A DNA stretch of 64,000 nt from an uncultured Verrucomicrobiota bacterium (GCA_964342405.1 CAYFGX010000013.1:87098-151097); one strand, 5' to 3'. Counted from the stretch's first letter, positions 3,074 to 60,710 are shown. Notes: generated by a model from the letters alone, not told the origin. Numbers and translations are program-made.

Positions 3074-3102
3074 TTGACAGAGAACTCTCCACGGCTTAGT
3101 TT
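3074..3102 (+). promoter_or_regulatory. candidate sigma70 promoter (TTGACA-N17-TAGTTT) immediately upstream of the DUF2071 gene; implies a very short leader
   Basis: TTGACA at 3074-3079, a 17 nt spacer, then TAGTTT at 3097-3102. The ATG at 3117 is about 8 nt beyond the predicted TSS. Confidence 0.25.
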
Positions 3103-3116
3103 CAGATAGTCATTTA

Positions 3117-5490: not shown

Positions 5491-5656
5491 TGCTCAAGGC
5501 TTAACAAATCTTCCTGTCGACGGGGAGGAAAAAGCGTGCTGGGAAGGGGCAGTGTGGGGCTGCTCGGCGAGTTGCGAGGGCGTCGGACTGACGGCTTGGT
5601 TCGTGAAATTCGAGTTTGCTTTCAAGCGGTGCTCGCCTGAAAATCGTCCTTTCGCC

Positions 5657-11851: not shown

Positions 11852-12300
11852 CGATATTTCTTATCTCAAGCAGGACACTGAACCTCAGGTCCAGTGCGAA
11901 GTGGGACATAGATAGGCCTTTGTATTCAGCGCGCTGAGGGCGCCGAAGGCTGGCATGCTCTGATCAACACTCGCGATTGAGTTCTGTCCTAGCATGTTGT
12001 CCATGGTTGAGATGTAGCAATACCGGTGCCAACTCTAATTCGTGATTTCTTTTTTGTGTCGGTAATTTTGATTTTCGGGGTTGATTGTGTCATTTCAGGT
12101 AGTTCTCAGTCAGAAACTGGGCACGATGCAGTCCAAACCCTGCTTCTTGACTCTTTGGAGCTTGCCAATTTTGCAACACCCACTCGACGGCACGGTCGAG
12201 AGATGGGAGAAGATTACCGCTAGGTGGTAAAAAAGAACCAGTCGTGAAACCAGGTGAGACTAATTGACTCGCTTTGTGAGGAGCGTTGTCTCACTTGGCA

Positions 12301-50200: not shown

Positions 50201-53124
50201 CGTTGATCCTCGCCTCAGGTGAGGAAAGTGCCGTGGTTACCTGGGAGAACCCGGTCGTGTCTGACAATGTGGCTGTCACAAGCAGTGTTGCCAGCCCGAG
50301 TTCCGGAAGTTCATTCGAGATTGGTGTTCACACCATTACCTTGACGGCCAGCGATCTCGCGGGAAATGAGACCGTGGAGAGCTTCGTTGTTTTTGTCCTT
50401 CCAACCGGAAACATTATCAACGTTTCGCCCTCTGAGAGTGGGGCGATGATTGCTGCGGATTCGAGTCTCTCTCTAACCGGTGACCTGGATCTGGCTTCCC
50501 ATACCGTCGATGAGGACAGCATTCGTGTTCACTTGTCTCAGAGCGGTGGGTTTCGGTCCGGGGATCGGGGTTTCGAGTCTGTTACGGGCGTTAGAGAGCG
50601 GGTGGAGATTCAGCCCAAAAAAGCATTCAAAGCGGGTGAGCGCGTTTCAATCACGTCGACCCGATCACTGAAAAACCGTCTAGGCGGACCGATGAACGCG
50701 CGGACCTGGCAGTTCCTCGCGGGAGTTGATAGTTCGGAGGGAGCCCTGATTCCGCCCCTCGGCCCAGTAGCGGATGCCGACGGAGAAATGGTCGCCTTGG
50801 GTGACTTTGATGGGGACGGAGATCTCGATTGTTTCTTGGCGAGTACTGCTGCTGACCGAGTGCTTCTTAATGACGGCCTGGGAAGTTTTAGTGACACAGG
50901 GCAACGATTGGGACAATCGCCAAGTCAGCCCAAAGACGTGGATCTTGGAGATCTTGATGGGGATGGGGATGTCGATGTTGTGGTGACAGGGCTCGGTAGC
51001 CACGGGACGCAAGTGTATCTGAATGATGGTCAGGGAGGCTTTCAAGATCAGGGCCAAGTGTTTCTCGATGGCGTCTTCTACGCAGCCGAACTGGGTGATC
51101 TTGATTCCGATGGAGATCTCGATCTGTTCCTTGCGAATTACGACGGAGCGGATCGAGTTTACCTTAATGACGGATTCGCCACATTCAATGACGGAGGGCA
51201 AATGCTAGGGAACATCGACCGGGGTGGTGTCACCGGTTGGAGCGTGTCTGTCGATGCGAGCATTGGAGATGTAGACCGAGATGGGGATCTCGACATCGTG
51301 GTTAGTGAGTTCGATGGCTATTGGTATCAATTGACCAATGATGGGACCGGGAATTTCAGTGCGATGCGATTGCCGACAATGCCCTTTGGGCAGCAGAGAA
51401 AGATTGAATTGGCTGATCTGGATGGAGATGGCGATCTGGATGCGATGAGCCTTTACGGGACGGGTTATGCCGTTTGGGGTCGAGATTCTGAAGGAGCCTT
51501 GAGTGTCGTCGATCAGTTTGATCCAGAGGTGATGGATGCCATGGCACTGGGGGACATCGACGGCGATGGCGATCTCGACATGGTGATCAGCGGGCAGGAT
51601 CGAGGCTACAAGTTCTGGATGAATGACGGAACAGGAGCCTTTGAAGTCGGACCTCGAGTAGATGGAAGTTTGAACCTGGGGCTTGCCCTTGGGGATATTG
51701 ATGGTGATGGGGATTTGGATCTGATAGGGAATCAGTCTTGGTGCTACAACCAGCATGCAGTGCTTGCGGATAAGGCTTACACCATTTCCGAAGAGGAGAA
51801 CATCTCGCTGGAAGCAGCTGATTTTGCTGCGCTGCGTGAGGACGGGGACGGTCCGAGTTTCGCTGGGATTCAAATCAGTAAGGTGCCAACAAAAGGGACC
51901 CTTGTGACCGGTGGCGTCACGCTGAAAGACGGTGACGTACTTGTCCCGAGCACAATGCAGAGCCTGGAGTACGTGCCAAACGAAGGAAGTGTTGGGGAAG
52001 ACTCGTTTGAGTGGGATGCCACCGATGGGTTGGCATACTCGGAGAATCCAGCAACCATTTCGATCACCATTACGCCCTCAAGCATTCCCGCAATTGTAGG
52101 GCGGAATATCTTCTACAATAATTCTTCCTTTGATCAGAACGATAGCGCGATCAACGAGCACGATGACTCTGCTGTCGCAACGAACAAGAGTGCTCTTCGG
52201 AACGGCCAAATGGGGACGCTCTCGCATGTGAGCAACTATAGCAAGGGGCTCAACGGGGTCATGATCGACGTGGAAAATATTCCCGACACGATCAGCCTTG
52301 CTGATTTTAGTTTCAAGGTGGGGAACGACAATGATCCCGCCAATTGGGTTGCTGGCCCAACACCCGCTCAGCTTCTCTTTCGTGCCGGGGCAGGGACTGG
52401 CGGTTCTGACCGTATTACTCTGGTATGGATCGATAATAACAGAGACGGCGTTGACGATGTCAATGAGGCTCCTCATGGGAAGTGGATGCAAATCACTGTC
52501 CTCGCAAATGCTTCCACGGGCCTTGCTGCTGATGACGTGTTCTACTTTGGGAATGCCATAGGGGAAACAGGGAATGCCCCTGGAAGTGCCCGGGTGACGA
52601 CTGCTGATGTGCTCTTGGTTCGAAACAATCCAAAGTCGTTCCTATCACCGGCCTTGATCACAGATCCTCATGACATAGACCGAGATGCGCGAGTGAACGG
52701 GGTCGACGTGCTGTTGGCCAGGAATCACATGACAAGTTTTCTCAATGAGCTTCAACTTATTGATCTCACCGGTTTGATCGCAGCCGATTCAGCGATAGGT
52801 GGTGGAGTAGAAGTGGACGCATCGCTCCCAGCTCAAGCTGAGATTGCCAAGGCGTTAGATGCTTTGACTGCCCGAGAATCCATCTCCGAGGTGAGGCCTC
52901 CAAGCCTTTCTTTGGATCCGTCGGGACAGATTAAGATTACCTTCCCGGGCGTCTCTGGAGGAAGTTATTCGGTTTTCTATAAGGACGGCATGGATCGGCC
53001 TGACTGGCGTGAGTTAAGCGCAGATGTTGTCGAAGTGTCCCCGGGGTGGTTTGTCGTCATGGACTCCACCGAGTCTCCAAGTCGCTTTTACCAATTTAAG
53101 TTGAATCATTCAGAACATGAATAG
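29227..53124 (+). CDS. giant secreted multidomain surface/adhesin-like protein (7,965 aa): signal peptide, 10x [right-handed beta-helix (Pmp-like) + Ig-like], HYR x8, FG-GAP/VCBS propellers, discoidin, cadherin-like domains, C-terminal dockerin-like module
   Basis: Single uninterrupted 23.9 kb ORF. GTG start at 29227 is the only in-frame start upstream of the signal peptide (LICLRSAVVGLALLLSIGAEGA). Domain evidence is given in the separate domain features. Confidence 0.9.
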   Translation: MFDFDSILRRGFRALTGDADINFKPKRELICLRSAVVGLALLLSIGAEGAVTRVYVDQSAAAGGDGTSWQAAFRELRYALLALGPNPDVLTEQEPVEIRIASGTYLPAATSSSEDRYKSFDFSGWYDMTVIGGFPVGGGGLATVNPRTNVTVLSGDLDGDGTPENNSYNVVTAKDNINLTFQGLVIEHGNTVYRKDDVAGVQKNQIVNLQRARTEAALRGFDLRGNLPSIGPGWIKIQAPNLSSVYNSRTPFGGWNEGDLPWLKKLSSASASPATWAFNQELFISSNRISDENGHEFPDPFNPLMKLDAIERYEGDFQIERPFSSGRRVFPFDIIPFEEDGMPGPRFEERNKDYLFAASLDDVNPFSHVAKPGFDRVSGLNRAYHDAIHRRGNGGGVRSFRCWRLLFQDCVFRFNSADAYGGAVFSKHSSVTYQNCVALRNRSGASGGAFCHLEDSFKFFECEFLKNEAVEGGGLYTLWEGDDYKSPSSDDLVGDAIALSQDTSRFARNVKRGLIAGAIRAAARDTVIQAVKNQFKNEAKEALFETFKDKYKSELTGKEIAKNLAKAVAYQGTKYFHQWLEEEGCGNNSDCIAYARFMNNVFKIVDLVLYWTDVFNLFNELKDFAEETNKSPDEVEEERRRAEEARLAAVLLERRQDFNSEARSIVRDCLFVENVSALGGVGIRSLHTNIRIDRTQFLNNRSTGASLLVGERRDDYEWGGAIHGSHYCDFLVSNCLFRGNRTHSGLASAIILRVNSSLFAEYCTLHNNKADEGFGSAFYGLTGVSSWFENSIFWGNRNSEFDVVGPADIQSITYDALPGEIKTRMANNGLDASDFGSSVAHLGDSFIESYPGSLGEGVQDKGGNTGVDPVLTADSRPQWNSPLLGYIPIRPVELREYSEKIEYIGNGFYGAVTNPGDVKDVLGVPRLHGSYADIGCFERAVVPARIYVGGAGVVGGQRGDSWSSGMADLATALDVIDHIVPAETEIWVREGVYQSPKDDGDPQDIAFRTHGHRNLRLYGGFEGDEMLADPSAFHLDVMEVCCRAELPVEGRNLIVFASVENQSEDWIRIFDSIGERVADFAVGSDVAWNFDKTRLSRSTPNLDQMRTIFGKLKSLLGLKQPDISLCLDGESDWIFGAEFDARLDLMEVERVSEIPDRGRSGIVVSRIIESGLLHFRVFDCVGRVVVDGLQTELDDPSDLVDSISLDLAGYWSSNPNTSEKADAIEEVMAFAQNEVGLKVRDSSSGTHQTTISGEHGASGDPSDNRKRLFSIDHDGRRRLKTLVVDGVTFKGAREGAFGLNPDSTQTLFRDCRFIENYNLSPTGRGGAIENQGDLTVFGSEFVGNYARKGGAIHSLGGRTTVLSSRFIDNVAEYRPNDAALIFEASAAGGAIYLDHSPATVQSSIFHGNQAIGIKAVGGAIAVSPDTQGTHADTFLTHCTIVGNQVVSGAGRVGAKPLGGGAGLFVNAFDYTQGATFIDGSIFWDNEVQGSEQVYPLPERQIDTQGKGYEILNSVVQGAATDALANVRSVNPSFDATSGDEFRLEDFSPLLNEISDSSPSFSGDAFDLLGRPTDDDFTVTLSPLDSLQEKRLFGAKRDLGAFELQSASASIGVPQSFYDAGLQLFGLSSVGFNNGPGERIRWQQFDGSGDPLLNSGDWIDLPDGADLDYVSSDSRSLLFRRNVSNYGDRYYRAVITRANGREIFSPPALFDAPILYVDHDAAGNNTGKSWTHAFTSLQDALAAARVSAGCREIWVAQGTYYPTGTFDRTISFEMVNGVGIYGGFEGGEALRVDSQRDASRTILSGDIGARNIKADNSYVVVRNAVAHGSRATLGPASILDGFVIEEGNANGQVFVADSQGGGMLNERSSPTLRNLIIQSNYANEGGGVANLDAEPTFINCTISNNTAEYGAGMFSRGGRINLDRCFIASNTAHARGGGLQSIDAIVALSFCEVRSNDGGGILHSRGQFDIRDSLVATNVGVHDAAGILVSDGGTGSVINCTVVYNRLDASGTPGLSRSGDDGQLFRVANSILWGNHFTSSRISEASANHQISGALNQTKCLVQNGGFGFDPLFVDDENGNYRLSVFSPAINSGDNAEVTDTLNSRDLDGGDSFRVQETTVDLGCYEFQTQTGGQLYFSSLPQSGAIESGKDLSMRLGNGQSAESFIIERIKDGVVATVIDDSFHVIRRNSNGLSLTLVSLDPSLDGAQYRFRDTSSESGFVSDVYELNVPSPIFVDGRVASSGNGRSWVSAKKTIRAALSVAVSGQQIWIAEGTYYPVDQASTDRTASLSLPQGVSLIGGFAGDEVSLSEREWERHPTRLSGDIGQVGVADDNSRVLLQVIGDVHGTPVSLETVIDGLIFSDGNQNLTRWDAALNLKGASPLVRNCRFENNRGYLGGAVTLDNSDAILFNCLFAGNLARNGGGGIYLRSGAGQIINCTVVGNQGGTISGGGGVLADASFTGQIVNTILWSNTDRRETNTGPSTVEQMQVRGTTMVSHSIVQGLDALAGSNNLGIDPLFLDLSLEDYRLNPFSPAVDAGDPAARLWDGLDAAGSSRVFNRGGGGIVDIGAYEAQSSARAPIGLVQSYDVGVITGSGRLDVKTLSGEANRYSWQVDRGDGAGFVALAGDGFHRITRTDTQLTLEILGAIQSMRGYRYRYVVANTTPSFVGSPVRLEVVPPVRVDSTIVSKLTAAQLDTRIEDGSSWLNAYVSLTDALNQVSRGGEIWVAEGIYYPSDPTAGRRDQAFAMRPDVGIYGGFKGFGANAESLRSERDPVLNRSILSGDIGVLNDPTDNSFNVIRNQGLTEALDRDSVLDGFVIVGAYREASANFDLSDGGAIHNQSNHPTIRNCVIEGNLGQRGGGIANYDSAPLISRVEVRNNRAATGAGLYNHYSSPRIENCLIAGNTASGDANRFGGGVFNDVSSAPTFLFCTVSANQSPFGGAGIGNDSSASPIIANSILWGNLSGDIAGTSLFGGTPTVSFSTVQASPSPAGTGNQNFNPLFQAWRTQDYSLSPFSPALDSASTSVAMEDTAFLDLSGAPRVSGAQSDLGCYELDLSSGRKSPIMLTSAPEQGFSMGSTEFPVIGHPAALVQWEMDLTNDNVVSFVPLIESPNRQLRTTASASTLEVIEPTAAASFRFKAVQNGEVFVSEAFSVAVMDPILVKSDASGVEDGKTWGTAFRTLTSALAQASLGQEIWVAAGVYFPTSGRDASVAFEMKDRVAIYGGFDGTESNRDSRDWLSNVTVLSGNIGELSVESDNSLHVLSNRDLSRRAVLDGFVIEGAFGGAAMLNRNASPTVRHCVFRDNQSLVTGAGIVNVLGAPLIEASSFYRNRGLRGGALESLGAGSFPEVVNSLFYENEAVSDGGAIFNEDGGRFVNVTVAFNRTGELVGGMDNAKANAVTVSNSILWGNQPSFSNRSQVLSGQIRKGTILQSIVQGMAIPGEDGNSGLDPLFVNPAFGMFQLSGFSPGIDAGNSSYLDDRFSKDLMNRDRRFAGTTVDLGAYEFQGARVGDIGLFQAFTDTTLLGGGTLRVRVPSGQGAKVEWLQDVGAGFVPVVMDSVHSVLIDDESSALRILNPAIDLNGARYAFQIVVPSAGTFQSGSATLKVFAPLLVDASVTPVASGRDTNGVYQSLQQALAEVSEGGAIWVAAGTYTPTGIDSGDRSASFGLVPGVSVLGGFESGQLPAQWSAASRDPDQFVTRLSGEIGDPNLRTDNSFRVIDNDGRTRDLGERTILDGFVVEGGYGTNGVGMRNVDASPVIRDCVFRDHYASASGAAVENQGTSAPLIAACRFYDNESGSTGGAISNFGSGNPLVVNSVFQGNRSGGAGGAIYSEALAAVINGTFTLNHSGGLGGAVFGLTPDSVEVVNSILWGNTATEEVSVEQGQVFGAAVTDSIVHGLEKLAGNRNIALDPLFIDPSQYDLRLSVYSPAVDQGAAGKDPSGQTTDAWKQPRVFGSQVDLGAFEVPSVSPGALGIIEGYSVVELAEGETVLRLRVAAGSVGSIVWQVDRGAGFEDLVSDAVHELLVSGEVVQLKIVSPSFSMNGFRYRYRVNGTAPEFVSFPVTLKVAPAIRVSQATGSDDNDGLSWGQAVKSIQKALSLVTTNGEIWVAAGTYYPTDGGNTGRGTSFQFGQRVSVYGGFRGDEGTRAARDWRLNPTILSGDIGNIGDDSDNSYHVLEHRSSEGLNGTHLDGVIVQDGHASGSGYQQDYGGGIFVHSGTLTLRNTMIRENKASWRGGAVAIEQGKLQLEGALIYNNSAVSSAGAIVLLSGDVTLTNTTVTENTSGSRTAGIDVFPGGRLTVSNSILHNNRTSGAASDLETQQLSGNASVFNSIVEGLNRYRSANSFAIDPLFADPENDDFSLSAFSGAIGRGSNASLPTGYTTDLDGVARVLPANDRTVDMGAYEYSGAAAGGLEVVQFPSFDSLIGGGELKVVVTPSFRNRIIWQIDRGDGTFVDLVADSVHSVVFGADSSTLKVSFPDAHLAGARYRFRVSGTSPEYVSESASLRLLPVLKVDADAAAGGDGLSWTTAFRTIQEAFAALPTVGLREIWVAEGTYYPSLTNARGDSFELQNNLRIYGGFQGGDDSEALSDRDWKSYPTILSGNIGSSSSSSDNSKRIIHNRGSSQINASAVLDGFVIEAGNGDNGAGIYNYAASPTIRNCHFRNNVVTSLGGAMYCIDSSPIVSDCIFENNEAQMGGSVRLSSGAAEFRRCQFLGGRASLGGGLSVGNSPALFENCLFAGNHATGSGGNYGGAIAVSYVDATGKTRFLNCTVVDNTSAGGAAGIELSPTPFGPVEVHNSILWNNLARGVANFDSQLKGNGITIRHSMVNGISDFGGNIASPPDFVAPSQKDYRLTACSFGINQGNNAAIPLPSLDLAGNARLFDGQAESDVVDMGAYELAGEVPANRLVLNASPVSRGVQEGGNASFSVTAVGDAVTYQWQSDDKGNGVFANLSDTAPYSGVTSSSLSVTAIPATLNGTQYRCVVTAASGCQEISESASLGVRFSTLFVDVDVTGNGDGSSWENAFTDLQASIATAAALNTEVEIWVAEGTYYPAGINSGNRDASFMMYPNVSLLGGFSGAEEAASERDWERNLSILSGDIGVANDNTDNSKHVVFASGPDIQKTLGPSAILDGFIVEKGYGPGGSGLHVDGASPTIRNVVFRGHVSTAKGGAIYIDREVEGFTQDSSPSFESCRFENNTAQSGGGAVFGIHMGNQRFQECVFENNRTLSGRGGAASFETKPFVAASNLQFLSCSFVGNQSTGPGGAMAVDQEDGELNLRNCFFGGNRATSGAGGALSLGLEGGSTNESFVVGCTFLANRARWGGGAISNRVRNFEMHNSIIWNNRDTSGTGGNRALDVSSDQSIIRQQVTIKSSSLENYAGIKGLIEERLDPYTPTSFTKFVAIGNLSVDPLFVQMGDPDVAPSVSVSPEINWCSPVIDRGFTTELVGSDRDVTGNSRRFRRGAPDIGAYELQEERIPSISIVSHPEDAYSSPSGTAVFSVIARGSFDSYLWQQDLGDGAGWMGLQESATYQNVGTDTLTIVGPALLLDQSSYRCVVSSAVGCAPISSNGADLFVDSTPPSITGMPDTIYLYPASGDRSAEATWTEPVASDNYAVATLVHDGPQDRVFAEGTTTVTYTATDLAGNVRTAKFDVIVTPLIAAILPSPKPGGAVDQNSEFVSIEFDQSIAGSSLGDQSVFVYGSQSGRSSIGNGGLDSLEANGAAIRIQDLESFYPGESVQVTFTDKVMSTRTHAMEPYIWSFQMANRSSDGGFDLDLESIMPNADLIPKLGDLDEDGDLDLWLADPMGGSRWMRNDGSGVFADAGQSMGSAKVNSVELLDLDGDGDLDGVVLTEVGLAIECWMNDGNGVFTSRVNSVGTGDVRDLAVGDFNGDGVLDLFAAHHDAPSEYWKNDGTGFFSVEWSTPGSERASGIEAGDLDLDGDLDVILTRVDSLGASQSDQVYLNRMRGSFLGPFDLTVSEADITQLGATIDSIDSPRDGDFSVSRMIDGNTGTDTWYEDFNNEPQNALLNISFDSAYYLSRYAITSTIHSWAPASWRVWNFQDGVRTDIDERSGQSFRNMATIANGVPPLNPVDHVWLSLFGQSFARYLMISEIQFYGRALPVAELTSRRILLADIDNDSDLDLISGNPSSTETRVYLNDGSVGRDRVPQFSHGRVLFKGGLEAGSYFGDFDGNQLRDVFALTTAPSGGLESHVLRNEGGGTFSVHQTIVGGKRLALGDIEGDGDLDAVMVVEPGLDGGASAAELIASRYSQLPIASGTKIEILEDHSFSFTRTFFEDRVSDDGAFSGIKIVALPANGSLKLGSATIAVGQLLDPDQLSEFVYVPQRGFSGKNWFEWQARDRSDQLFSASGRVQIKVIPVNDRPIMSSISDRTFDIAKANPWVRYFDPSPGDSDQEWFMELSHDNPQLIRSVTRDVSANDRINRRGKIRFDFVEGQIGSALVTVVVTDDGGTAHGGIDRFVTTFTVTVRDTVNPAIANMPADISVVVGAGSRLVPVTWDPPTLNVNSGLTNLSSSHSSGDLFPIGATPVVYTASDGSGNEETATFTVTVLDQESPMVVNPISSFDVPLPIGDVTAQVYWAPPVFADNDRIKLQGSTHVPGDVFPAGDTAVQYWAEDPSGNRLSSEFVVSVVDRELPVLSGVPSDRTQETDPGLASATVTWLPPVASDNSGSVQLSASHSPGEMFAVGETVVTYAAVDGAGNRTDGDFTVRVVDREAPSYATFPADIDVATDAGLATATVTWVAPVASDNVGVVTSTATQQPGAKFPLGRNVVVYSARDAADNVVTRSLVISVLDQERPSISGLPADISIPVSAGAEGMSIDWVEPTASDNVAVASFTSSHQPGALFPIGLTTVTYTAKDSAGNELSRSFKVQVTDDEAPSFVGSLETVEVPTDPGLASARVTWDAPLVHDNGERVALSYSRAPGSIFPLGTTTVNVTATDISGNQASDSFDVVVVDEESPVFESVPADITLILASGEESAVVTWENPVVSDNVAVTSSVASPSSGSSFEIGVHTITLTASDLAGNETVESFVVFVLPTGNIINVSPSESGAMIAADSSLSLTGDLDLASHTVDEDSIRVHLSQSGGFRSGDRGFESVTGVRERVEIQPKKAFKAGERVSITSTRSLKNRLGGPMNARTWQFLAGVDSSEGALIPPLGPVADADGEMVALGDFDGDGDLDCFLASTAADRVLLNDGLGSFSDTGQRLGQSPSQPKDVDLGDLDGDGDVDVVVTGLGSHGTQVYLNDGQGGFQDQGQVFLDGVFYAAELGDLDSDGDLDLFLANYDGADRVYLNDGFATFNDGGQMLGNIDRGGVTGWSVSVDASIGDVDRDGDLDIVVSEFDGYWYQLTNDGTGNFSAMRLPTMPFGQQRKIELADLDGDGDLDAMSLYGTGYAVWGRDSEGALSVVDQFDPEVMDAMALGDIDGDGDLDMVISGQDRGYKFWMNDGTGAFEVGPRVDGSLNLGLALGDIDGDGDLDLIGNQSWCYNQHAVLADKAYTISEEENISLEAADFAALREDGDGPSFAGIQISKVPTKGTLVTGGVTLKDGDVLVPSTMQSLEYVPNEGSVGEDSFEWDATDGLAYSENPATISITITPSSIPAIVGRNIFYNNSSFDQNDSAINEHDDSAVATNKSALRNGQMGTLSHVSNYSKGLNGVMIDVENIPDTISLADFSFKVGNDNDPANWVAGPTPAQLLFRAGAGTGGSDRITLVWIDNNRDGVDDVNEAPHGKWMQITVLANASTGLAADDVFYFGNAIGETGNAPGSARVTTADVLLVRNNPKSFLSPALITDPHDIDRDARVNGVDVLLARNHMTSFLNELQLIDLTGLIAADSAIGGGVEVDASLPAQAEIAKALDALTARESISEVRPPSLSLDPSGQIKITFPGVSGGSYSVFYKDGMDRPDWRELSADVVEVSPGWFVVMDSTESPSRFYQFKLNHSEHE
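29387..45955 (+). repeat. ten diverged tandem units, each a ~380-aa parallel beta-helix followed by a ~95-aa Ig-like domain
   Basis: Each unit starts with a [IL]xVD..(G)DG.SW..A...L..AL......EIWVA.GTY.P block and a GGF.G box. It carries GGAI/FxxN (chlamydial Pmp-type) repeats and NxxxxGN turns. It ends with VDLGAYE[FL]Q, followed by an Ig-like segment with W[QE]xDxGxGF...RYR. Units start near 29387, 32060, 34360, 35920, 37260, 38700, 40050, 41430, 42760 and 44250. Confidence 0.8.
30750..31230 (+). other. AT-rich, Lys/Glu-rich predicted alpha-helical insertion inside beta-helix unit 1
   Basis: Local drop in GC. The encoded peptide NVKRGLIAGAIRAAARDTVIQAVKNQFKNEAKEALFETFKDKYKSELTGKEIAKNLAKA...EEERRRAEEARLAAVLLERR is unlike the surrounding Gly/Asn/Ser-rich beta-helix. 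Confidence 0.5.
45960..46210 (+). other. HYR (hyalin repeat) domain 1 of the giant protein
   Basis: PSITGMPDTIYLYPASGDRSAEATWTEPVASDNYAVATLVHDGPQDRVFAEGTTTVTYTATDLAGNVRTAKFDVIVT matches the HYR pattern (W..P.A.DN.........G..F..G.T.V.Y.A.D..GN). Confidence 0.7.
46560..47995 (+). repeat. FG-GAP/VCBS calcium-binding repeats (46560-47110 and 47620-47995) flanking a discoidin (F5/8 type C) domain (47160-47600)
   Basis: DxDxDGDLD loops (LGDLDEDGDLDLWLA, LLDLDGDGDLDGVVL, VGDFNGDGVLDLFAA, AGDLDLDGDLDVIL, LADIDNDSDLDLISG, LGDIEGDGDLDAVMVV). Discoidin-like RMIDGNTGTDTWYEDFNNEPQNALLNISFD...ARYLMISEIQFYGR. Confidence 0.65.
48700..50405 (+). repeat. array of seven tandem ~81-aa HYR domains
   Basis: Seven consecutive units share [VI]TWxxPxxSDN...hxxG..FPxGxTxVxYxAxDxxGNxxxxxFxVxVxDxExP (for example ATVTWLPPVASDNSGSVQLSASHSPGEMFAVGETVVTYAAVDGAGNRTDGDFTVRVVDREAP). 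Confidence 0.75.
50760..51760 (+). repeat. seven consecutive FG-GAP repeats (predicted 7-bladed integrin-alpha-like beta-propeller)
   Basis: LGDFDGDGDLDCFLA, LGDLDGDGDVDVVVTG, LGDLDSDGDLDLFLAN, IGDVDRDGDLDIVVSE, LADLDGDGDLDAMSL, LGDIDGDGDLDMVISG and LGDIDGDGDLDLIGN recur at roughly 50-60-aa intervals. Confidence 0.75.
52420..52750 (+). other. dockerin-like module (two Ca-binding-loop + helix segments) near the C-terminus of the giant protein
   Basis: WIDNNRDGVDDVNEAP and DIDRDARVNGVDVLLARNHM resemble dockerin type-I 12-residue EF-hand-like loops followed by a helix. Similarity is inferred by eye only. Confidence 0.4.
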
Positions 53125-53856: not shown

Positions 53857-56800
53857 CTAGGCTTGGTGGGGGAGTGGAAACCGAATCACCCATTCTGTGC
53901 CATTGCCCACGGAGGAAATGAGTTCGCAAGAGCCTTTGAACATTGTCGCTCGCTCTCGAATCCCACTGAGGCCAAAGCCGTGCTGCTCCCTAGTTTTTTC
54001 GAGATCTGGATCGAATCCTCGCCCATTGTCCTTGATTCGCAAGGTGATCATTTGATCTGTAATCAGGAGGGTGACGATCACTCGAGTGGCCTCTGCATGT
54101 TTGAGGCAATTGTTCATCGCTTCTTGGATGATTCTAAAGAGGTTGATTTGCTTTTCCGCCGAAAGATTCTTTGGGATAGGTTCGATCTCATGTTCGATCT
54201 CAATCTCACTCGCATCGCCGATCTGATTGAGCATGCCTTGAATGGCTTTCGTCAGGCCGAGTCGATCGATCTGGTAGGGGCGGAGATTGTTGGCAATACT
54301 TCGGACTTCCTGGATTGAGTCCAAGCTGATGTCCGATATCTCCTGAAGTGCTGTCCCCATCGCATCCGGCCCTGTGGGTGTGCGGAGTGTGAGAGCGGCT
54401 CGGTTCTTGATGACGAGGAGGTTCTGTTCGAGGCTATCATGCAGTTCTCTGGCAATCCGTTTTCGATCAGCTTCCTGTCGCGAGAGCATATCTCGGGCGA
54501 AGCGCTCTTGCTCAGTTTTTCGACGCTTGTCGCGACTGATACGAGTAAGGAATCCCAGTGAAACGAGCCCCATGAAACCAAGTGCGCCTAGGGCCTGGAA
54601 TCCCGCTGACCTCCAAATGGCGCCTTCTACCTTGAGGGTTAATGTCGTGTCGTCTTCGTTCCAAAGTCCGCTATTGTTGGCTGCCGAGGCTTGAAACTGA
54701 TAGTTGCCAGGAGCGAGATCTTGCAACACGACTGACTGTTGAGGGCCGATATCGGTCCAATCTGAGCTGATCTCTTTCACGCGATAGCGAAATCGAATCT
54801 CGTCTGGTGCCGAAAAGTTGAGGCCGGAGAATTGAATTTCTATTCTTTCTACGTGGGAAGGAACTCTAAAGGTCGGATTGTTTCGGTGCTGGGATATTGG
54901 GTTTGGACGGCCGTCGAGGGAGAGATTTTCGAGGAGAACTGTGGGCGGAGTCTTGTTCAGTGGGAGAGTTTTCGGGTTTACATAGCATGGTCCCCCGCTC
55001 GTAGCGAACCAGAGATTGCCATCGTCCGTGCGAAGGCTGGAGGGGTGTCCGGCGTTGCATTGGAGTGAGGGAAGGCCATCATCTGTCGAGTAGGAGTTGG
55101 CGAACAAATATGAGATCTCTCCGTTGGCGACGCGATCGAAATTATCGAACGAGACTCGATGGATCCCATTGTAGGAACCGAACCATAGACTCCCTAGATG
55201 GTCATCGATGAGTGTGCTGATCTCATTGGAAGGAAGACCATGCTCGGTGGAGTAGTGCTGAAAGGTGCCGTGGCGGAATCGATAAATACCTTGTCCTCCG
55301 GTTCCAAACCAGATGTCGCCTGATTGTCCGATGGCGATTGCTCTGACTCGGATGGGGGCGACCTGTGAGGCCTTGGAAACGTGTTCGAAGCGATCGGCTT
55401 TGTAGCGGTAAATGCCGTTATCGCCGGTTCCAATCCAGACTGTGCCATCGGGCCCGCAAGCGAGACTCAACACCTCTTTTGTTGGCCGGTTTTCGTAGGC
55501 TGTGAGATCCATTGGCTGATTGTCCTCAATTACAGCGAGTCCCCCATCACTGCTGCCAACCCAAAGCCTGTTTTCCAGATCGTAGCAGGTCGCGACAATT
55601 CGTCTTCCCAATCCGATGTCGAATGCATCAATCGGTATGAAGGCTCCATCCTTGAGTGAAAATGTCGATGCCGATCGGCGGCGTTGATTTGATTTGCTTA
55701 GGCCGGTTGCATATTTTCCACCGAATACGTCTCCCATTTGGTTGGCCGTTAGCGTCCAAATGTCTCCTCTGCCCTGATGGATCGCATTATCAAGAGTGGT
55801 GCCATAGAGCTGATTTTTTGGAATTTCCAAAATTCCTCTAATTGTGCCGAGAAGGAGGTTTCCGGATTTTTTTTGAAGAAACGAACGGGCTTTGGTGCCC
55901 TCTGGAGGAAGGCCGCTGATTAAGCGGAATTTGCGTTTGCGAATCCTGCTGAGTCCCTTGTCAGCTAATGTAGCATTGGCCGTCCAGAGCGTGCCCTCGG
56001 CATCGGTGACTAAAGGTCCGCCAATGTCCAGCGGCGTACTCTGGATGTGGTATTGGCCCTGGTCGTCTGGAACGTAGTGTTCTTGGGCCGTAGATTTGGT
56101 TCTTTTCACCCAAAGTGAACCGTCACTGACTTCAAGGATGCTAGTGGCCTTTTTCAGTTCCTGGTCTTCTTGAATGATCTCACCTGAGATAATTCTTTCC
56201 CCATTATACCTCAAGATTCTTCCATCGACCGCAAGCCAGATGCCGCCCGATCTCGCGGGTGTAGGTCCCGCCGTGATCAGTTCACTTTCGTTAAAGACAT
56301 GTTGGGTGGACATGTTGTCCTCTGTCAGAGTTCCCAACTTATTTCCACGACTCCACCATGTCGTTCCTTGATGGTCCGTTACCGCGGTGAAAGGTGGGTT
56401 CTGTTCCCCGGGCAAAGGTGTGAGAACTGCGTGCTCGGTTGGACGGGCACCCTTCATAGACATGAGGCGGCGCTGTCGTGTGTCACGGTTCAGACTCGAA
56501 TACACCAAGGTGCCGTCGGGACGGATTGTATGAAGTGAAAGGCGTGTCTCTGGATTCGTCCGCAGGCCCGTTGTGCGGTGGAAAGTCCCTTTGCTGTATT
56601 GAATGATCTCGTCTCGCACATTGAGCCACAGCGATCCATTTGCTGCGGGAATGATACCGCTCACTCTTCCATGGGGGAAACCCGGTGTGTTCGCGTCAAA
56701 AACCGTGAACTCTTGCCCATCGAACCGGGCGAGTCCGTAGAAAGTGCCAAGCCAGATGTAGCCATCTGTGGATCTAGCAATACTGAGAATTGGGCTGCCA

Positions 56801-56982
56801 GGGATACCGTCGTTAACGTTCCAAGTGTCTGCGATGTAGCCGCCCTCTAACTCAAAATACGATTTTCCCCTGAGAACTTCTTCGGGGATCATAGCGAGCA
56901 GGAATCCAATGAGGAGTAACTTCAGAATCCTTAGGGCGAGATGACCGGAGTTTGATTGAGGCATCGGTGATGTCGAGACCAT
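53857..56982 (-). CDS. sensor histidine kinase, NarL-type (HisKA_3 + HATPase_c), with large periplasmic two-component-regulator-propeller (Reg_prop) and Y_Y_Y domains
   Basis: 1041 aa. Signal/TM, then repeated WxGTxxGLxxY propeller blades, a Y_Y_Y-like region and a TM helix (LGALGFMGLVSLGFL). HisKA_3 H-box (RIARELHDSLEQNL) and N/G-box ATPase (DNGRGFDP, GFGLSGIRER). Confidence 0.9.
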   Translation of the reverse strand: MVSTSPMPQSNSGHLALRILKLLLIGFLLAMIPEEVLRGKSYFELEGGYIADTWNVNDGIPGSPILSIARSTDGYIWLGTFYGLARFDGQEFTVFDANTPGFPHGRVSGIIPAANGSLWLNVRDEIIQYSKGTFHRTTGLRTNPETRLSLHTIRPDGTLVYSSLNRDTRQRRLMSMKGARPTEHAVLTPLPGEQNPPFTAVTDHQGTTWWSRGNKLGTLTEDNMSTQHVFNESELITAGPTPARSGGIWLAVDGRILRYNGERIISGEIIQEDQELKKATSILEVSDGSLWVKRTKSTAQEHYVPDDQGQYHIQSTPLDIGGPLVTDAEGTLWTANATLADKGLSRIRKRKFRLISGLPPEGTKARSFLQKKSGNLLLGTIRGILEIPKNQLYGTTLDNAIHQGRGDIWTLTANQMGDVFGGKYATGLSKSNQRRRSASTFSLKDGAFIPIDAFDIGLGRRIVATCYDLENRLWVGSSDGGLAVIEDNQPMDLTAYENRPTKEVLSLACGPDGTVWIGTGDNGIYRYKADRFEHVSKASQVAPIRVRAIAIGQSGDIWFGTGGQGIYRFRHGTFQHYSTEHGLPSNEISTLIDDHLGSLWFGSYNGIHRVSFDNFDRVANGEISYLFANSYSTDDGLPSLQCNAGHPSSLRTDDGNLWFATSGGPCYVNPKTLPLNKTPPTVLLENLSLDGRPNPISQHRNNPTFRVPSHVERIEIQFSGLNFSAPDEIRFRYRVKEISSDWTDIGPQQSVVLQDLAPGNYQFQASAANNSGLWNEDDTTLTLKVEGAIWRSAGFQALGALGFMGLVSLGFLTRISRDKRRKTEQERFARDMLSRQEADRKRIARELHDSLEQNLLVIKNRAALTLRTPTGPDAMGTALQEISDISLDSIQEVRSIANNLRPYQIDRLGLTKAIQGMLNQIGDASEIEIEHEIEPIPKNLSAEKQINLFRIIQEAMNNCLKHAEATRVIVTLLITDQMITLRIKDNGRGFDPDLEKTREQHGFGLSGIRERATMFKGSCELISSVGNGTEWVIRFPLPHQA

Positions 56983-57224
56983 GATAGCATTCTATGGCAG
57001 CGTCTAGATGGCCCTGTTTGAATTGAAAATACGATCGGCCCGGGAAGAGGCTATTCGAGAATCCGAGTCTTGCCTATAGGGATGAATACCTAGTCCTTTG
57101 TTGCAATTGGGCCACTGAGGCTTGCTCGTATTCTAGATTGGTAGGGGGCGAGGTGCCGATACAGCGCGGATGAACGATCGAGAGCGGGGAGGTGAAATTC
57201 TGACGAGGTACTCGACAGGAAATT

Positions 57225-57253
57225 CAAGGGCACCAGGCTGGCTGGTGCCCTTG
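57225..57253 (-). terminator. GC-rich 12-bp stem-loop (CAAGGGCACCAG-GCTGG-CTGGTGCCCTTG) just downstream of the SPFH gene stop
   Basis: Perfect inverted repeat 7 bp after the stop codon at 57260 on the minus strand. Followed on the minus strand by GAAUUUCC, a weak U tract. Confidence 0.45.
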
Positions 57254-57259
57254 TGCTTT

Positions 57260-58354
57260 CTACAATAGGTTTGTTACGCGGTCGGTGAGTCCTTTTTCAC
57301 CGAGCACGATGTTCATTTTGGACGAACTTGCGATCCGTTCGAGAACTTCGAGTTCTCGCATACGCATCAGCGCAGGGTTGCCCTCCATGAGCCGTGCCGT
57401 GTTCATCTGGCTCCGCATCGCTGCGGTTTCTTCGCGTCGCGCGATGACATTGGCTTCCGAGGCTTTCTTGGCTTCGATGACTTTGTTTAGCAACATCTTC
57501 ATGTCTCCGGGCAGGATCACGTCTTTGATCCCAAGCGAGATGATCTCGACTCCGAAGGCCTGAGCTCGCTTTCGCATAGCGGACAAGAGTTCGTCAGCCA
57601 CTGCCGTCTTGTCTGACAGCAATGCGTCCAGGTCGCGTGTTCCTACTGTGCTGCGGAGAGCAAGTTGGGCGTCTCGATACAAAGCCTGATCAAGGTCCTT
57701 CACTTTCTCCGCGCAGAGCTGGGGATCGCTCACGCGGAAGGTCACCATCGAGTTCAAGCGAAGCGATACTTTGTCCGCTGTCATGATCTCCTGTCCACTG
57801 ATGTCGATCACCCGTTCTCGGATATCGATGTACGTGCACGTGAAGTTGCCGACTTGTTTCCAGGCTGCGTAGCGCCCGGGGGCCAAGACCTTCTGGAAGC
57901 GTCCGTCCTCGTAGCAGATGGCTACGGAACCTTCGCTCACGGTGAAGATGTCAAACACATTGGGTGCTTGCGGGCATCCGAGTACGGGTGCGAGTTCTTG
58001 GTGCTCGAATAGACCGCCAGTCACGGTGACTGTTTCAATCCGGACCTTCCGAAAGCGGGTCCAAACCACGTAGAGTCCTTGGTCCAGAATGCCATCGAAG
58101 CGGCCATCAATCCACACCAGCGCACGTTCGTTCTCTTTTAGATCGATGACTTGCGCCGAGTCTCCGAGTGCTCCCGATTTGACGATGAGGTCGAGATCAG
58201 GGTGCCTGAGCCAAGGATCGCGTTGGGATACGACTTCGATACTGCGCTTGGTGAAGCGAGGAAAATTCCAGTAGGTTCCTTGCCCGACGATCTTCTTGAA
58301 CTCTTTGTCCACGAAGACCAATCCCTTTTCGAATGATCGGATTTTCTTTCTCAT
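57260..58354 (-). CDS. SPFH/band-7 (slipin/stomatin-like) domain protein with N-terminal extension
   Basis: 364 aa. C-terminal SPFH core (LALRSTVGTRDLDALLSDKTAVADELL..., AQAFGVEIISLGIKDVILPGDM...) plus a coiled-coil tail. No obvious N-terminal TM helix. Confidence 0.8.
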   Translation of the reverse strand: MRKKIRSFEKGLVFVDKEFKKIVGQGTYWNFPRFTKRSIEVVSQRDPWLRHPDLDLIVKSGALGDSAQVIDLKENERALVWIDGRFDGILDQGLYVVWTRFRKVRIETVTVTGGLFEHQELAPVLGCPQAPNVFDIFTVSEGSVAICYEDGRFQKVLAPGRYAAWKQVGNFTCTYIDIRERVIDISGQEIMTADKVSLRLNSMVTFRVSDPQLCAEKVKDLDQALYRDAQLALRSTVGTRDLDALLSDKTAVADELLSAMRKRAQAFGVEIISLGIKDVILPGDMKMLLNKVIEAKKASEANVIARREETAAMRSQMNTARLMEGNPALMRMRELEVLERIASSSKMNIVLGEKGLTDRVTNLL

Positions 58355-58737
58355 TTCTCTCTCTTTCTTTCTCTTCGTGAGTGCGAAGCAAATTCTCGTT
58401 TGTGCCCCTTGCCTTCAAGAGAACCCGAATGCCGGCCACACTCATGTCGCGGAGCGCTCCTGGTTCTGCGGAGGCTGACTGTGGGGGCTTTGAGGCATGG
58501 GCTTGAACCATTGGCCCAAGCCGTATGCCGTGCTGCCCCCGAGTGCCAGTTCTTCACTGAATCCGTGGCTCGCTTCAAGGCGATCGCTTTGTGCTGCTTG
58601 ATGAGAACGCGAGCTTCGGTAGATCGAACAACGGATTGTTCAGATCCGACCTTGTCTCTTATTCCCGTCAAGCGGGCTCGACACGCGGGTGTCTCTATCC
58701 GGCGCTTGGCTACCATGAGAGGGAATGCACCCTCGGG

Positions 58738-58810
58738 TATCAGGTAAGGGACTCGAACCCTTTACATCTTCGGTGATAACGAAGTGCTCTACCAATTGAG
58801 CTAACCAGAT
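58738..58810 (-). tRNA. tRNA-like gene (73 nt) with non-canonical anticodon loop UUAUCAC (nominal anticodon AUC); possible variant tRNA, pseudo-tRNA or tRNA-like regulatory RNA
   Basis: Minus-strand sequence AUCUGGU-UA-GCUC-AAUUGGUA-GAGC-A-CUUCG-UUAUCAC-CGAAG-AUGUA-AAGGG-UUCGAGU-CCCUU-ACCUGAU-A folds as a cloverleaf. It has a canonical D-arm and T-arm (GGTTCGAGTCC). The acceptor stem has one U-U mismatch, no CCA is encoded, and A34 is unusual for bacteria. Confidence 0.5.
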
Positions 58811-58941
58811 CTGCCAGAACGGCTTCGTCAGAATCCATTCACGGAACACTCAATCTGAAACCTCCACGCACGATCTCGGGAGAACGAACGCTTGTTGGTC
58901 AGTTGTGCGCCGCTGGCCCACCGTCGTGACGTTGAATCGAG

Positions 58942-58959
58942 TTGCAATCCGGATGCCAA
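58942..58959 (-). promoter_or_regulatory. sigma54 (RpoN) -24/-12 promoter, TTGGCAT-CCGGA-TTGCA, reading leftward toward the tRNA-like gene and the SPFH gene and divergent from rtcR
   Basis: Minus-strand sequence CAAGGTTGGCATCCGGATTGCAACTCG matches the consensus YTGGCACG-N4-TTGCW, with GG and GC at the correct spacing. Predicted TSS is near 58932. It is about 170 bp upstream of the divergent rtcR start. Confidence 0.55.
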
Positions 58960-59129
58960 CCTTGAATGGGTTTTTAATGGTGGGCTCTCAAGGTGTTGAC
59001 TGTGAATTATTTGCGTTGATTGGGTTTGCTCCATGGGCCGTTTTTCTAGAAATCGTTGTGTGAGTTAAAGTAGCTGAAAAGATAGAAAAATAGACTGGGA
59101 GATAAGTAGGATAATGTTAGGTTTGATGC

Positions 59130-60710
59130 GTGAAAACGGTTGTGATCAGTCTACTTGGGAGCATGCTCGATCGGGGGTCTAAGGAAGATCGATGGCAACG
59201 TTGGCGGCCGAGTGTGAGTCTGGTTCAGCATGAGGATCTCGCGGTCGATCGATTTGAGCTGTTGTATGAGGCCCGCTTTGAACGCTTGGCCAAGACGGTC
59301 TGCGAGGACATTGCTGAGGCTTCGCCCAAGACGAAAGTCGTCAAACGCTTGATCGCCTATGACGATGCTTGGGATTTTGAACAGGTCTACGCAGCGCTGC
59401 ATGACTACGCACGTGCGGGCGCCTTTAAGCCTGACAAGGAGAACTACCTCATTCATATCACGACCGGAACACATGTCGCTCAGATCTGCCTTTTTCTGCT
59501 CACGGAATCGAGATACTTGCCAGGGAAGTTGATTCAAACGAGTCCACCGAAACGGAAGGGGAAGATTCCTCGGGGGCAATATGACATCATCGACCTAGAT
59601 CTTTCGCGATATGACCGGATCGCTTCCCGCTTTCGCCAGGAGGCGCAGGATGATATCGCCTTCCTCAAGTCTGGAATCCAAACGCGAAACAAGGCCTTCA
59701 ACCGTCTGATCTCAGAGATCGAAAACGTTGGCGTACGGTCGTCCGAACCGATCCTCCTGATCGGTCCCACCGGGGCGGGTAAGTCTCTTCTCGCGAGACG
59801 GATCCAAGAGTTAAAGCGCCATCGCGGTCAACTGGAGGGCAGTTTTGTGGAAGTAAACTGCGCGACGCTCCGTGGCGATGCGGCCTTGTCGGCGCTGTTT
59901 GGACATAAGAAGGGCGCCTTCACCGGAGCGGTCAGTGATCGCCCGGGACTGTTGCGAGAAGCTCACAAGGGAATGCTGTTCCTAGATGAGATTGGTGAGT
60001 TGGGCTTAGATGAGCAGGCGATGCTGTTGCGAGCCATCGAGGAAAAGAGATTTCTGCCCATGGGGGCAGACGTCGAGGTGAAGAGCGATTTCCAACTGAT
60101 CTGCGGAACAAACCGGGATCTGTCTGAGGAGGTTCGGGAGGGAGGCTTTCGTGAGGACCTCTACGAGCGGATCAATCTCTGGACCTTCTATTATCCAGGA
60201 TTGCGGGAGCGAGTGGAGGATATTGAGCCGAACTTGGATTATGAGATCGATCGTTTCGCTGAGAAACACAAGCGTCAGGTTCGGTTTAGTCGAGAGGCGA
60301 GGGAAGCATTTGTGTCCTTTGCGCGCTCGGGAGAGGCGCTCTGGAGAGGGAATTTTCGAGATTTAAACAGTGCCGTTATTCGGATGGCGACCTTGGCGCA
60401 GGGAGGCAGGATCACGGTGAAAGAGGTGAAGGATGAGATCGCCCGGCTCCGAAAGAAGTGGCAAACCTTGCGGCAAGAAGCGACGGCAGAACTCGTCGTG
60501 GAGGTTCTTGGTTCCGATGCGGCGGAGTCTCTAGACCGCTTTGATCGGGTTCAGTTAGCGGACGTGCTGAAGGTCTGCCGAGAATCTCGCAGTGCGGCGG
60601 AGGCGGGGCGAACGCTGTTTGCTGCTTCAAGGGCAAAGCGATCCTCAAGCAATGATTCGGATCGGCTGCGAAAGTACCTCGCCCGGTTCAACCTTAAATG
60701 GCCCGTGTAG
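59130..60710 (+). CDS. rtcR: sigma54-dependent transcriptional activator RtcR (N-terminal CARF domain + AAA+ sigma54-interaction domain + C-terminal HTH)
   Basis: 526 aa with GTG start. Colinear with E. coli RtcR across the whole length (KWRPxxxLxxQ, YLIHITTGTHVAQICLFLL, Walker A GPTGAGKS, GAFTGA, ESELFGH-like LSALFGHKKGAFTGA, NLWTFYYPGLRER, RGNFRDL, DRLRKYLARF). Confidence 0.9.
   Translation: MKTVVISLLGSMLDRGSKEDRWQRWRPSVSLVQHEDLAVDRFELLYEARFERLAKTVCEDIAEASPKTKVVKRLIAYDDAWDFEQVYAALHDYARAGAFKPDKENYLIHITTGTHVAQICLFLLTESRYLPGKLIQTSPPKRKGKIPRGQYDIIDLDLSRYDRIASRFRQEAQDDIAFLKSGIQTRNKAFNRLISEIENVGVRSSEPILLIGPTGAGKSLLARRIQELKRHRGQLEGSFVEVNCATLRGDAALSALFGHKKGAFTGAVSDRPGLLREAHKGMLFLDEIGELGLDEQAMLLRAIEEKRFLPMGADVEVKSDFQLICGTNRDLSEEVREGGFREDLYERINLWTFYYPGLRERVEDIEPNLDYEIDRFAEKHKRQVRFSREAREAFVSFARSGEALWRGNFRDLNSAVIRMATLAQGGRITVKEVKDEIARLRKKWQTLRQEATAELVVEVLGSDAAESLDRFDRVQLADVLKVCRESRSAAEAGRTLFAASRAKRSSSNDSDRLRKYLARFNLKWPV

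Follow-up and report, generated by a model that had tools for sequence, protein, structure and literature searches.

A pair formed by a Band-7 (SPFH) protein and a tRNA-like RNA, the b7a-tRNA, is reported to have been predicted by Burroughs & Aravind (2016) to accompany RNA-repair systems of bacteria as an accessory. The present analysis concerns a locus in which such a pair lies divergent from the regulatory gene rtcR, at positions 57,260 to 60,710 of a 64,000-nucleotide (nt) stretch of DNA from an uncultured Verrucomicrobiota bacterium (GCA_964342405.1 CAYFGX010000013.1:87098-151097), the whole of which is referred to as the window. The b7a-tRNA and Band-7 were placed next to RtcB in a preprint, with the interpretation of a trans-acting cofactor, and the pair is described there as never validated (bioRxiv 10.1101/312249); the b7a-tRNA was mentioned in no other paper of the literature searched. 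For Salmonella RtcR, the binding of 5' tRNA halves with 2',3'-cyclic phosphate ends by the CARF domain was described as the activating event, and such induction, like dependence on rpoN, is known only for the RtcR of Salmonella and Escherichia coli (PMC7790460). In Pseudomonas aeruginosa, the slipin PaFlo8 (PA14_60630) is embedded in the rtcR/rtcA/rtcB locus (PMC13086221). In Anabaena PCC 7120, the repressor TrcR controls a 26-gene tRNA array, rtcB and alr0739-alr0740 (PMC10272220, PMC8421152); alr0740, a 'slipin family protein', was up 42-fold in the trcR mutant and was co-derepressed with rtcB and the tRNA array, and TrcR was called the functional equivalent of RtcR by the authors (PMC10272220). 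The array tRNAs were proposed as sponges for toxin RNases (PMC8421152).

The locus is a further, ligase-less example of the known and so far purely computational Band-7/b7a-tRNA module, and it is not a new kind of system because the RNA-protein pair had already been predicted in 2016. The parts named by an earlier interpretation made without database searches (the sequence-only reading), namely RtcR, a sigma54 promoter, a tRNA-shaped gene, an SPFH gene and a hairpin, were all present, with coordinates exact or within 1-2 nt. As in the described module, the tRNA-like RNA directly precedes the Band-7/SPFH gene, and orthologous loci (55-63% identity) add rtcA and rtcB downstream with rtcR facing; unlike in the described module, neither the operon nor the 64-kb window as a whole contains RtcB, RtcA or another ligase. 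The adjacency of RtcB or a ligase was taken as the context of the module's description and was not treated as defining.

The locus resembles the Salmonella rsr-yrlBA-rtcBA operon in that rtcR is divergent and one unit with a sigma54 promoter holds both a tRNA-mimicking non-coding RNA and the gene of a putative RNA-binding scaffold protein, and the analogy drawn earlier with the tRNA-like Y RNAs of that operon was apt (PMC7790460). The scaffold in the window is an SPFH/Band-7 protein and not a TROVE protein (the Ro60 orthologue Rsr), the RNA has a full cloverleaf including the anticodon arm, unlike the Salmonella Y RNAs, and rtcB and rtcA are absent. Compared by published description, the P. 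aeruginosa rtc locus likewise carries an SPFH-family gene (PaFlo8) between rtcR and the rtc genes, with RtcA and RtcB present there, unlike in the window. Also compared by description, the Anabaena TrcR regulon resembles the module in that translational stress jointly induces a slipin gene, an RNA ligase gene and additional tRNA genes. It differs by a repressor and sigma70 promoters in place of RtcR/sigma54 and by its tRNA array, where the window has only one tRNA-like domain.

A total of 82 loci from Planctomycetota, Verrucomicrobiota, Acidobacteriota, Desulfobacterota and other groups were compared; for this purpose, 80 further loci were fetched from genomes representative of their species and analysed together with the window by using ARAGORN, tblastn and open reading frame (ORF) clustering. 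Of the 76 loci for which 700 nt or more of upstream sequence were available, 72 had the RNA ahead of the Band-7 gene on the same strand (70-146 bits), where it ended 360-600 nt before the Band-7 start codon. The RNA and Band-7 pair is the constant core, and RtcR, rtcA/rtcB and tRNA arrays are variable additions.

The rtcR-SPFH adjacency, the comparison of which across genomes had been proposed by the sequence-only reading, was found in 13 of the 82 homologous loci, with RtcR divergent and adjacent (the window, L001, L002, L006, L011, L019, L023, L028, L036, L040, L056, L076 and L078). In 8 of these 13, rtcA and/or rtcB came after Band-7 in the same orientation (Pfam RTC 269 bits, RtcB 294 bits), and neither gene was present in the other five (the window, L001, L002, and the Desulfobacteraceae metagenome-assembled genomes (MAGs) L076 and L078). 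The lack of ligase and cyclase in the operon, common to these five, is the only unusual point of the locus. Among the 68 loci with at least 2.5 kb downstream, rtcA and/or rtcB lay 3' of Band-7 in 12, and 56 were without either. The closest relatives on megabase contigs were L001, whose Band-7 protein is 79% identical to that of the window, and L002 (63%; the same place as L004, a Limisphaerales MAG). In both, a divergent RtcR, a gap of ~790 nt with one tRNA-shaped gene and an SPFH gene were found, RtcB/RtcA were not within 8 kb, and the proposed order of RtcR, divergent sigma54 promoter, tRNA-like RNA, SPFH and terminator is conserved. The designation as an undescribed RtcR-regulated module could not be maintained, given PaFlo8 in the P. 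aeruginosa rtc locus (PMC13086221) and the eight RtcR-adjacent Band-7 loci that run into rtcA/rtcB.

The rtcR gene (59130..60710, plus strand) encodes a protein of 526 amino acids (aa) with a CARF-type sensor, a sigma54-interacting AAA+ domain and a C-terminal DNA-binding region. It was recognized by NCBIfam (RNA_repair_RtcR equivalog, 800.8 bits at a cut-off of 650), by Pfam (RtcR (CARF) 276 bits, Sigma54_activat 166 bits, AAA_lid_14) and by PADLOC (RtcR--CARF_AAA_HTH, 840.6 bits). Divergent from it, pattern matching gave a sigma54 -24/-12 promoter, TGGCAT-N5-TTGCA (58943..58958, minus strand, TGGCATCCGGATTGCA), which carries the -24 GG and -12 GC elements and has a predicted start at ~58931-58933. 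The pattern TGGCAY-N5-TTGCW was matched twice in the window against 0.07 expected, and two matches occurred in none of 100 shuffles. An A+T-rich spacer (58959..59129), the conservation of which with L001 and L002 is patchy, lies between rtcR and the promoter and is presumed from its position only to be the enhancer (RtcR-binding) region. Of the 13 RtcR-adjacent loci, 11, which belong to several phyla, have a TGGCA(C/T)-N5-(T/C)(T/G)G(C/T) element 30-56 nt 5' of the point where the conserved RNA starts; in loci without RtcR the sigma54 element is absent, and the RNA there is preceded by tRNA genes or by another conserved motif. This anatomy, together with the conservation of the promoter, points to RtcR-controlled transcription from the sigma54 promoter.

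The other exact sigma54 consensus of the window, TGGCACCGGTATTGCT, lies at 12016..12031 (minus strand); an ATG ~15 nt 3' of it opens an ORF of ~38 codons (MDNMLGQNSIASVDQ...), as read by eye, and no larger gene follows on that strand before ~11300. L073 (Aeoliella sp. SH292 NZ_CP197417.1) had been clustered with RtcR, but it was rejected because its activator is an NtrC-type response regulator with a receiver domain. This sigma54 activator (1397-3103, plus strand) lies 2.3 kb 5' of the RNA and Band-7 pair on the same strand, and no sigma54 promoter was seen ahead of the RNA in that locus.

For the delimitation of the RNA, an nhmmer profile was seeded with the window leader and converged on an element of ~182 positions. 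The element is present in the window as a single copy (58722..58920, minus strand, 113 bits, E=2.9e-34), which begins ~10 nt past the start predicted from the sigma54 promoter and in which a 5' domain (made up of GGGCCAGCGGCGC, a variable hairpin and GUGUUCCGUnnAUGGGUUCUGACGA) is joined through a linker to a complete cloverleaf, with a hairpin after it. On the minus strand, the 5' domain with its variable covarying hairpin, GUGUUCCGUGAAUGG... and the linker occupies 58811..58922 according to the nhmmer profile and covariation, the tRNA-like domain (b7a-tRNA) occupies 58736..58810, the hairpin GAGGG-UGCAUU-CCCUC (58719..58734, read from the sequence) follows directly 3', and the distal part of the leader (58355..58718), with blocks conserved with L001 and L002, extends up to the Band-7 start codon.

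The structure was analysed on a 50-sequence MAFFT alignment (A2) by using RNAalifold, and 32 pairs were counted, including those of the manually added 3' hairpin. Long-range helices of the 5' domain were predicted together with the tRNA arms; the long-range helices CCA/UGG, CGG/CCG and CGCA/UGUG were paired in 95-98% of the 50 sequences, with compensatory changes. Standard pairing was found for 95.7% over the 32 pairs, versus 26-45% with the partners slid, and changes on both sides were seen in 21 pairs and 151 cells, versus 11 and 29.7 in shuffles, with none of 500 shuffles reaching the observed values. The 3' hairpin, with the consensus GCAGG-CUGAAAA-CCUGC, covaries with both-side changes in all five pairs of the same alignment.

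The 578-nt leader of the window had a folding z of -3.19 relative to shuffles. Across loci, the interval from the RNA start to the Band-7 start codon (~580-670 nt) is conserved and non-coding (e.g. L048:5340-6009, L034:5445-6059), and the tRNA-like part makes up ~1/8 of it; no terminator or promoter was found in the window between the RNA and the Band-7 ORF. Several hairpins with GNRA-type loops and a repeated GAUCGGC motif were also observed in this interval. For the distal leader, a 468-position profile from Planctomycete loci detected 70+ loci; the window shares with it just short motifs (CUCCGCG...GUGUGGCCGGC and AGCAGCAC), and conserved blocks of its own lineage were seen in the three-way alignment of the window, L001 and L002. 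Homology of this distal part is suggested by the short motifs and the three-way alignment. Only the tRNA part was recognized by Rfam (56900..59300 at E<=1; a Planctomycete copy at E<=5), no Rfam Y RNA family was matched at E<=1 in 56900..59300, and Rfam has no described family for the larger RNA. In L077, a Pirellulaceae MAG, the element and its leader occur twice on one contig (5038-5207 and 8269-8867); the second copy lies ~1.2 kb 3' of the Band-7 gene, runs toward the contig end and may belong to a second, paralogous module.

The tRNA-like domain matched the Rfam tRNA model at 58738..58810 on the minus strand (61.1 bits, E=3.4e-12, model positions 1-71, one non-canonical acceptor pair) and was called 'tRNA-Asp, anticodon ATC' by ARAGORN at 58736..58810; no other tRNA-shaped gene was called by ARAGORN anywhere in the window. 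The domain lies 382 nt 5' of the Band-7 ATG. It has D, anticodon and T arms, the anticodon loop UUAUCAC (58773..58779; anticodon-loop columns 184-191 of alignment A2) with U33 present, a 7-bp acceptor stem with one U-U mismatch and the 3' end ACCC, the CCA not being encoded. The 73-nt tRNA-like gene of the sequence-only reading was recovered as a cloverleaf, but it is not free-standing: it is one domain, the 3' one, of a covariation-supported RNA of ~180-200 nt within a leader of ~580 nt.

This domain does not decode, because the anticodon is hypervariable and U33 is not kept. Across the 45 copies with a 7-nt loop, 24 different triplets were found at positions 34-36 and U33 in just 25, with a loop entropy of 1.5-1.9 bits; the columns of the D-stem and the T-arm are almost all invariant. 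In 31 sequence pairs, at most two differences were counted at 61 body positions, yet at least two at the four loop positions 33-36, and the near-identical bodies of the window, L001 and L002 carry the anticodons ATC, ACG and AGC, respectively. The copies called 'Leu' by ARAGORN are 74 nt long and without the long variable arm, and many copies, Planctomycete ones included, have three acceptor pairs only and match Rfam tRNA model positions 5-66. Bacterial A34 tRNAs are in practice limited to Arg-ACG, and AUC is not known as a decoding anticodon in bacteria. A genuine tRNA-Asp(AUC) was rejected on account of the variation of the anticodon on a shared body.

The Band-7/SPFH gene (57260..58354, minus strand) encodes a 364-aa protein of the 'slipin family', in which Pfam Band_7 (PF01145) was found at residues 138-309 (111 bits, E=8.6e-32). 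The family is large and tightly conserved, with >5,400 homologues, mostly of 366-368 aa and with 55-63% identity across phyla, some of which are labelled 'slipin family protein' by their sources. The sequence-only reading took it for a membrane-scaffold protein, which was not borne out: the highest 19-residue Kyte-Doolittle mean was 1.22, so that no hydrophobic segment is present. The AlphaFold2 model (predicted local distance difference test, pLDDT, 81.4; predicted template modelling score, pTM, 0.57) consists of two N-terminal beta-repeat units, the SPFH domain and a C-terminal helix of ~40 residues, and the beta-repeat motif '...DGRF...L.PG.Y..W' recurs where the SPFH domain starts. A membrane-anchored slipin/stomatin scaffold was rejected on the basis of the missing hydrophobic segment, the all-beta N-terminus of the model and the absence of an NfeD gene among the neighbouring genes.

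In a Foldseek search against the PDB with this model, human stomatin came first (E=6e-17, 28-29% identity), followed by HflK/C, prohibitin, flotillin and erlin; alignment length was greatest (398-458 columns) for the major vault protein (MVP; E=1.9e-11), but with a template modelling (TM) score of ~0.37 and an identity of 12-15%. The solved SPFH relatives and the vault protein form rings or cages. On the model, the Band-7 protein is probably a soluble oligomer, either a ring or a cage. Likened by predicted fold alone, it shares with the eukaryotic vault the beta-repeats, an SPFH-fold (MVP shoulder) domain, a long helix, solubility and an associated small structured RNA, and it differs in length (364 aa versus ~800-860 aa for MVP). 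No PADLOC defence family was assigned to the SPFH protein.

The transcription unit appears to be closed by a terminator-like hairpin (57225..57253, minus strand) with a 12-bp stem of 8 G-C pairs and the tail AATTTCCTGT; terminator-like hairpins stand at the equivalent position in L001 and L002, in L002 with a clear T-run. The next gene beyond it encodes a histidine kinase, and the predicted RtcR target unit ends without RtcB or RtcA. In agreement with the sequence-only reading, rtcB and rtcA were not found in the 64-kb window by tblastn with Pfam-verified RtcB/RtcA queries from homologous loci (best E=0.14), and the Band-7 unit is the only adjacent predicted target of RtcR.

Taken together, the locus is likely to be a ligase-less copy of the Band-7/b7a-tRNA module of Rtc-type RNA-damage responses under direct RtcR/sigma54 control. 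By analogy with Salmonella RtcR, tRNA fragments ending in 2',3'-cyclic phosphate would be sensed by RtcR, which would then activate the divergent promoter at 58943..58958. One transcript of ~1.7 kb would run from ~58932 to the hairpin at 57225..57253, with the first ~580 nt as a structured non-coding leader and the remainder coding for the soluble SPFH/Band-7 protein. The tRNA-like domain in the leader does not decode, since its anticodon and U33 drift freely on a nearly invariant body. Like the solved SPFH proteins and the vault protein, the Band-7 protein probably forms a soluble ring or cage, and it probably binds the leader-derived tRNA mimic to give an RNA-protein particle. This particle would act on damaged tRNA or rRNA as a scaffold, chaperone or sequestering compartment, comparable to the proposed action of Ro60-Y RNA in rsr-yrlBA-rtcBA operons. 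RtcB/RtcA of the source genome would have to be encoded elsewhere or be dispensable.

Several observations weigh against this reading. RtcR is not adjacent in ~47 of the 60 Band-7 homologue loci with enough upstream sequence, and RtcR control is for this reason lineage-specific. Neither an RpoN-box motif nor rpoN was found within the 64-kb window, the U-tail of the closing hairpin is weak, and the window, L001 and L002 were not detected by the distal-leader profile (for the window, no match at E<=10). The particle is suggested by the gene-RNA linkage only. The deletion of PaFlo8 gave no phenotype in the assays given in the accessible portion of the report, among which RNA-damaging stress was not included (PMC13086221).

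A more far-reaching combination is possible, and as a whole it is held only tentatively and would sooner be doubted than accepted. It comprises a ligase-free, stress-induced particle made of a large multi-domain RNA (core ~180-200 nt, leader ~600 nt) with a deliberately variable anticodon loop and a soluble, vault-like Band-7 shell, which would capture damaged tRNAs or anticodon nucleases, or would be a cleavable bait yielding the RtcR ligand. In this combination, the pair would be the terminal member of the stress-type arrays of Planctomycetota, and a reduced Escherichia coli version would extend the RtcR regulon to a second locus with slipin, nucleotidyltransferase and kinase.

Among the alternatives, the tRNA-like domain may be a bait or decoy, that is, a sacrificial substrate or competitive inhibitor of anticodon nucleases (toxins, colicins, defence nucleases), the cleavage of which releases a cyclic-phosphate 5' fragment that feeds back on the RtcR CARF domain, with the anticodon variability as the trace of an arms race and Band-7 as a separate effector. 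The concentration of the variation at loop positions 33-36 within a nearly invariant cloverleaf, the location of the Planctomycetota module directly 3' of long tRNA arrays and the sponge proposal for the Anabaena array tRNAs (PMC8421152) are in keeping with it. However, the variation is accounted for just as well by an unconstrained loop that drifts freely, and the strict linkage to Band-7 and the large conserved domains flanking the cloverleaf are left unexplained; as stated, this is unlikely, and it is compatible with the ligase-less module under RtcR control and not exclusive of it.

That the RNA of ~580 nt is a cis-regulatory leader, which controls elongation into or translation of Band-7 without a stable particle, possibly upon binding RtcB or a factor for tRNA processing or modification, would fit its constant position on the same strand 360-600 nt 5' of the start codon, the conservation of the whole interval and, in the window, the lack of a terminator or promoter between the RNA and the ORF. 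It is nevertheless quite unlikely: the array-type element follows tRNA genes and could be excised by their processing enzymes, no alternative terminator/antiterminator pairing was seen, and the published reading is that of a trans-acting cofactor (bioRxiv 10.1101/312249).

It is very improbable that the locus is a decayed remnant of an rtcR-b7a-Band7-rtcA-rtcB operon that lost rtcA/rtcB and has no function of its own. The retention of rtcA and/or rtcB after Band-7 in 8 of the 13 RtcR-adjacent loci, and not in the window, would agree with such a loss, but the reduced layout is kept in the relatives with 79% and 63% identity and independently in L076 and L078, no ORF is disrupted, the promoter is close to consensus, the RNA reaches 113 bits and 56 of 68 Band-7 and RNA loci are without adjacent rtcA or rtcB. 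An ordinary tRNA-Asp (AUC) flanked by chance by a sigma54 promoter on one side and the gene of a membrane SPFH scaffold on the other, a reading to which the Rfam score of 61 bits, U33, the 7-nt loop and the 7-bp acceptor stem of the window copy lend themselves, is hardly credible in view of A34 being practically confined to Arg-ACG in bacteria, the anticodons ACG and AGC on the near-identical bodies of the closest orthologues, the CCA that is not encoded, the embedding in a larger conserved RNA and the Band-7 protein without a membrane segment.

The variable surroundings of the core were also recorded. From 5 to 34 ARAGORN-predicted tRNA genes preceded Band-7 on the same strand in 27 of the 60 loci whose upstream sequence was long enough, nearly all from Planctomycetota, and an HNH endonuclease of ~200 aa (Pfam HNH, 55 bits) was found inside the tRNA arrays of 22 loci. 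These arrays, with up to ~34 tRNA genes and an embedded HNH gene, resemble the stress-induced cyanobacterial L-arrays, which also have a neighbouring HNH gene. The window itself is not of the array type: it has one tRNA-shaped gene, and no HNH gene was found in it by tblastn with HNH proteins from homologous loci. Array loci include L016, L020, L034, L048 (Bythopirellula polymerisocia NZ_SJPS01000008), L063, L072 (Lacipirellula limnantheis NZ_CP036339), L080, L083 and others, in which the arrays lie ~0.3-5.4 kb upstream of the Band-7 gene (at ~6001 in these loci). Most amino acids are represented in the Planctomycetota arrays, some of whose anticodons are atypical of bacteria (Arg-GCG, Ile-TAT, Val-AAC, Cys-ACA), and three predicted array tRNAs of L003 fall below the Rfam tRNA gathering score.

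More distant slipin loci were observed in Burkholderia and in E. coli. Of 5,426 complete E. coli genomes, 1,625 have the greater part of a locus that lies between yjbD and lysC, and the annotated copies examined encode a slipin with 37% identity to the Band-7 protein of the window, together with a nucleotidyltransferase and a kinase of the 'zeta toxin family' (e.g. L084, CP061233.1, 5590-7829; L086, E. coli WAT NZ_CP012380.1, 2715-5916). This locus is preceded by a sigma54-type element (TGGCACGCTTCTCGCA) with rtcR not adjacent, and it has a reduced RNA with the motif GUGUUCCGU and a T-arm (GGGUUCGAUUCCC) without a full cloverleaf; it may be controlled by RtcR in trans. In L085 (Burkholderia multivorans NZ_CP143551.1, 5481-7110), a sigma54-type element (TGGCACGCTCCTCGCT, 5481-5496), a tRNA-like gene called 'Phe, anticodon AAA' by ARAGORN (5666-5735) with an extra T-arm-like hairpin just 5' of it, and a slipin homologue (35% identity) from 6001 were found.

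Directly beyond the terminator-like hairpin, the histidine kinase gene (53857..56982, minus strand, the same as Band-7; 1,041 aa; Reg_prop/Y_Y_Y propeller repeats, HisKA_3/HATPase_c domains) probably forms a unit of its own, and conservation of the neighbours on this side does not extend to L001 or L002. The other neighbouring genes encode a zinc-ribbon protein and a Wzz-like protein (Pfam), and a TROVE/Ro60 gene was not among the neighbours searched by Pfam. A single ORF of 7,965 aa (29227..53124, plus strand) fills 24 kb of the window. A phage origin was unsupported, with no tblastn matches among 50,697 phage records at E<=1e-20.

Beyond the published work, the multi-domain nature of the RNA, the hypervariability of the anticodon, the existence of RtcR operons that lack a ligase, the joining of the module to tRNA arrays and the presence of sigma54-type promoters at the distant slipin loci of E. 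coli and Burkholderia may be new, and possibly also a Band-7 protein without a transmembrane segment and, judged from the model, with a stomatin/vault-like fold. One conserved RNA-protein core ties together three separate observations, which are the slipin genes in rtc loci, the stress-induced tRNA arrays and the tRNA-like Y RNAs. The locus is about the simplest natural test case, with one regulator, one promoter, one RNA, one protein and one terminator and with no confounding ligase or cyclase, and experiments could build on a covariation-supported RNA structure, a swappable anticodon loop and an SPFH protein that is soluble and amenable to structural study. Should tRNA damage prove to induce the unit, ligation would not be the only output of the RtcR response.

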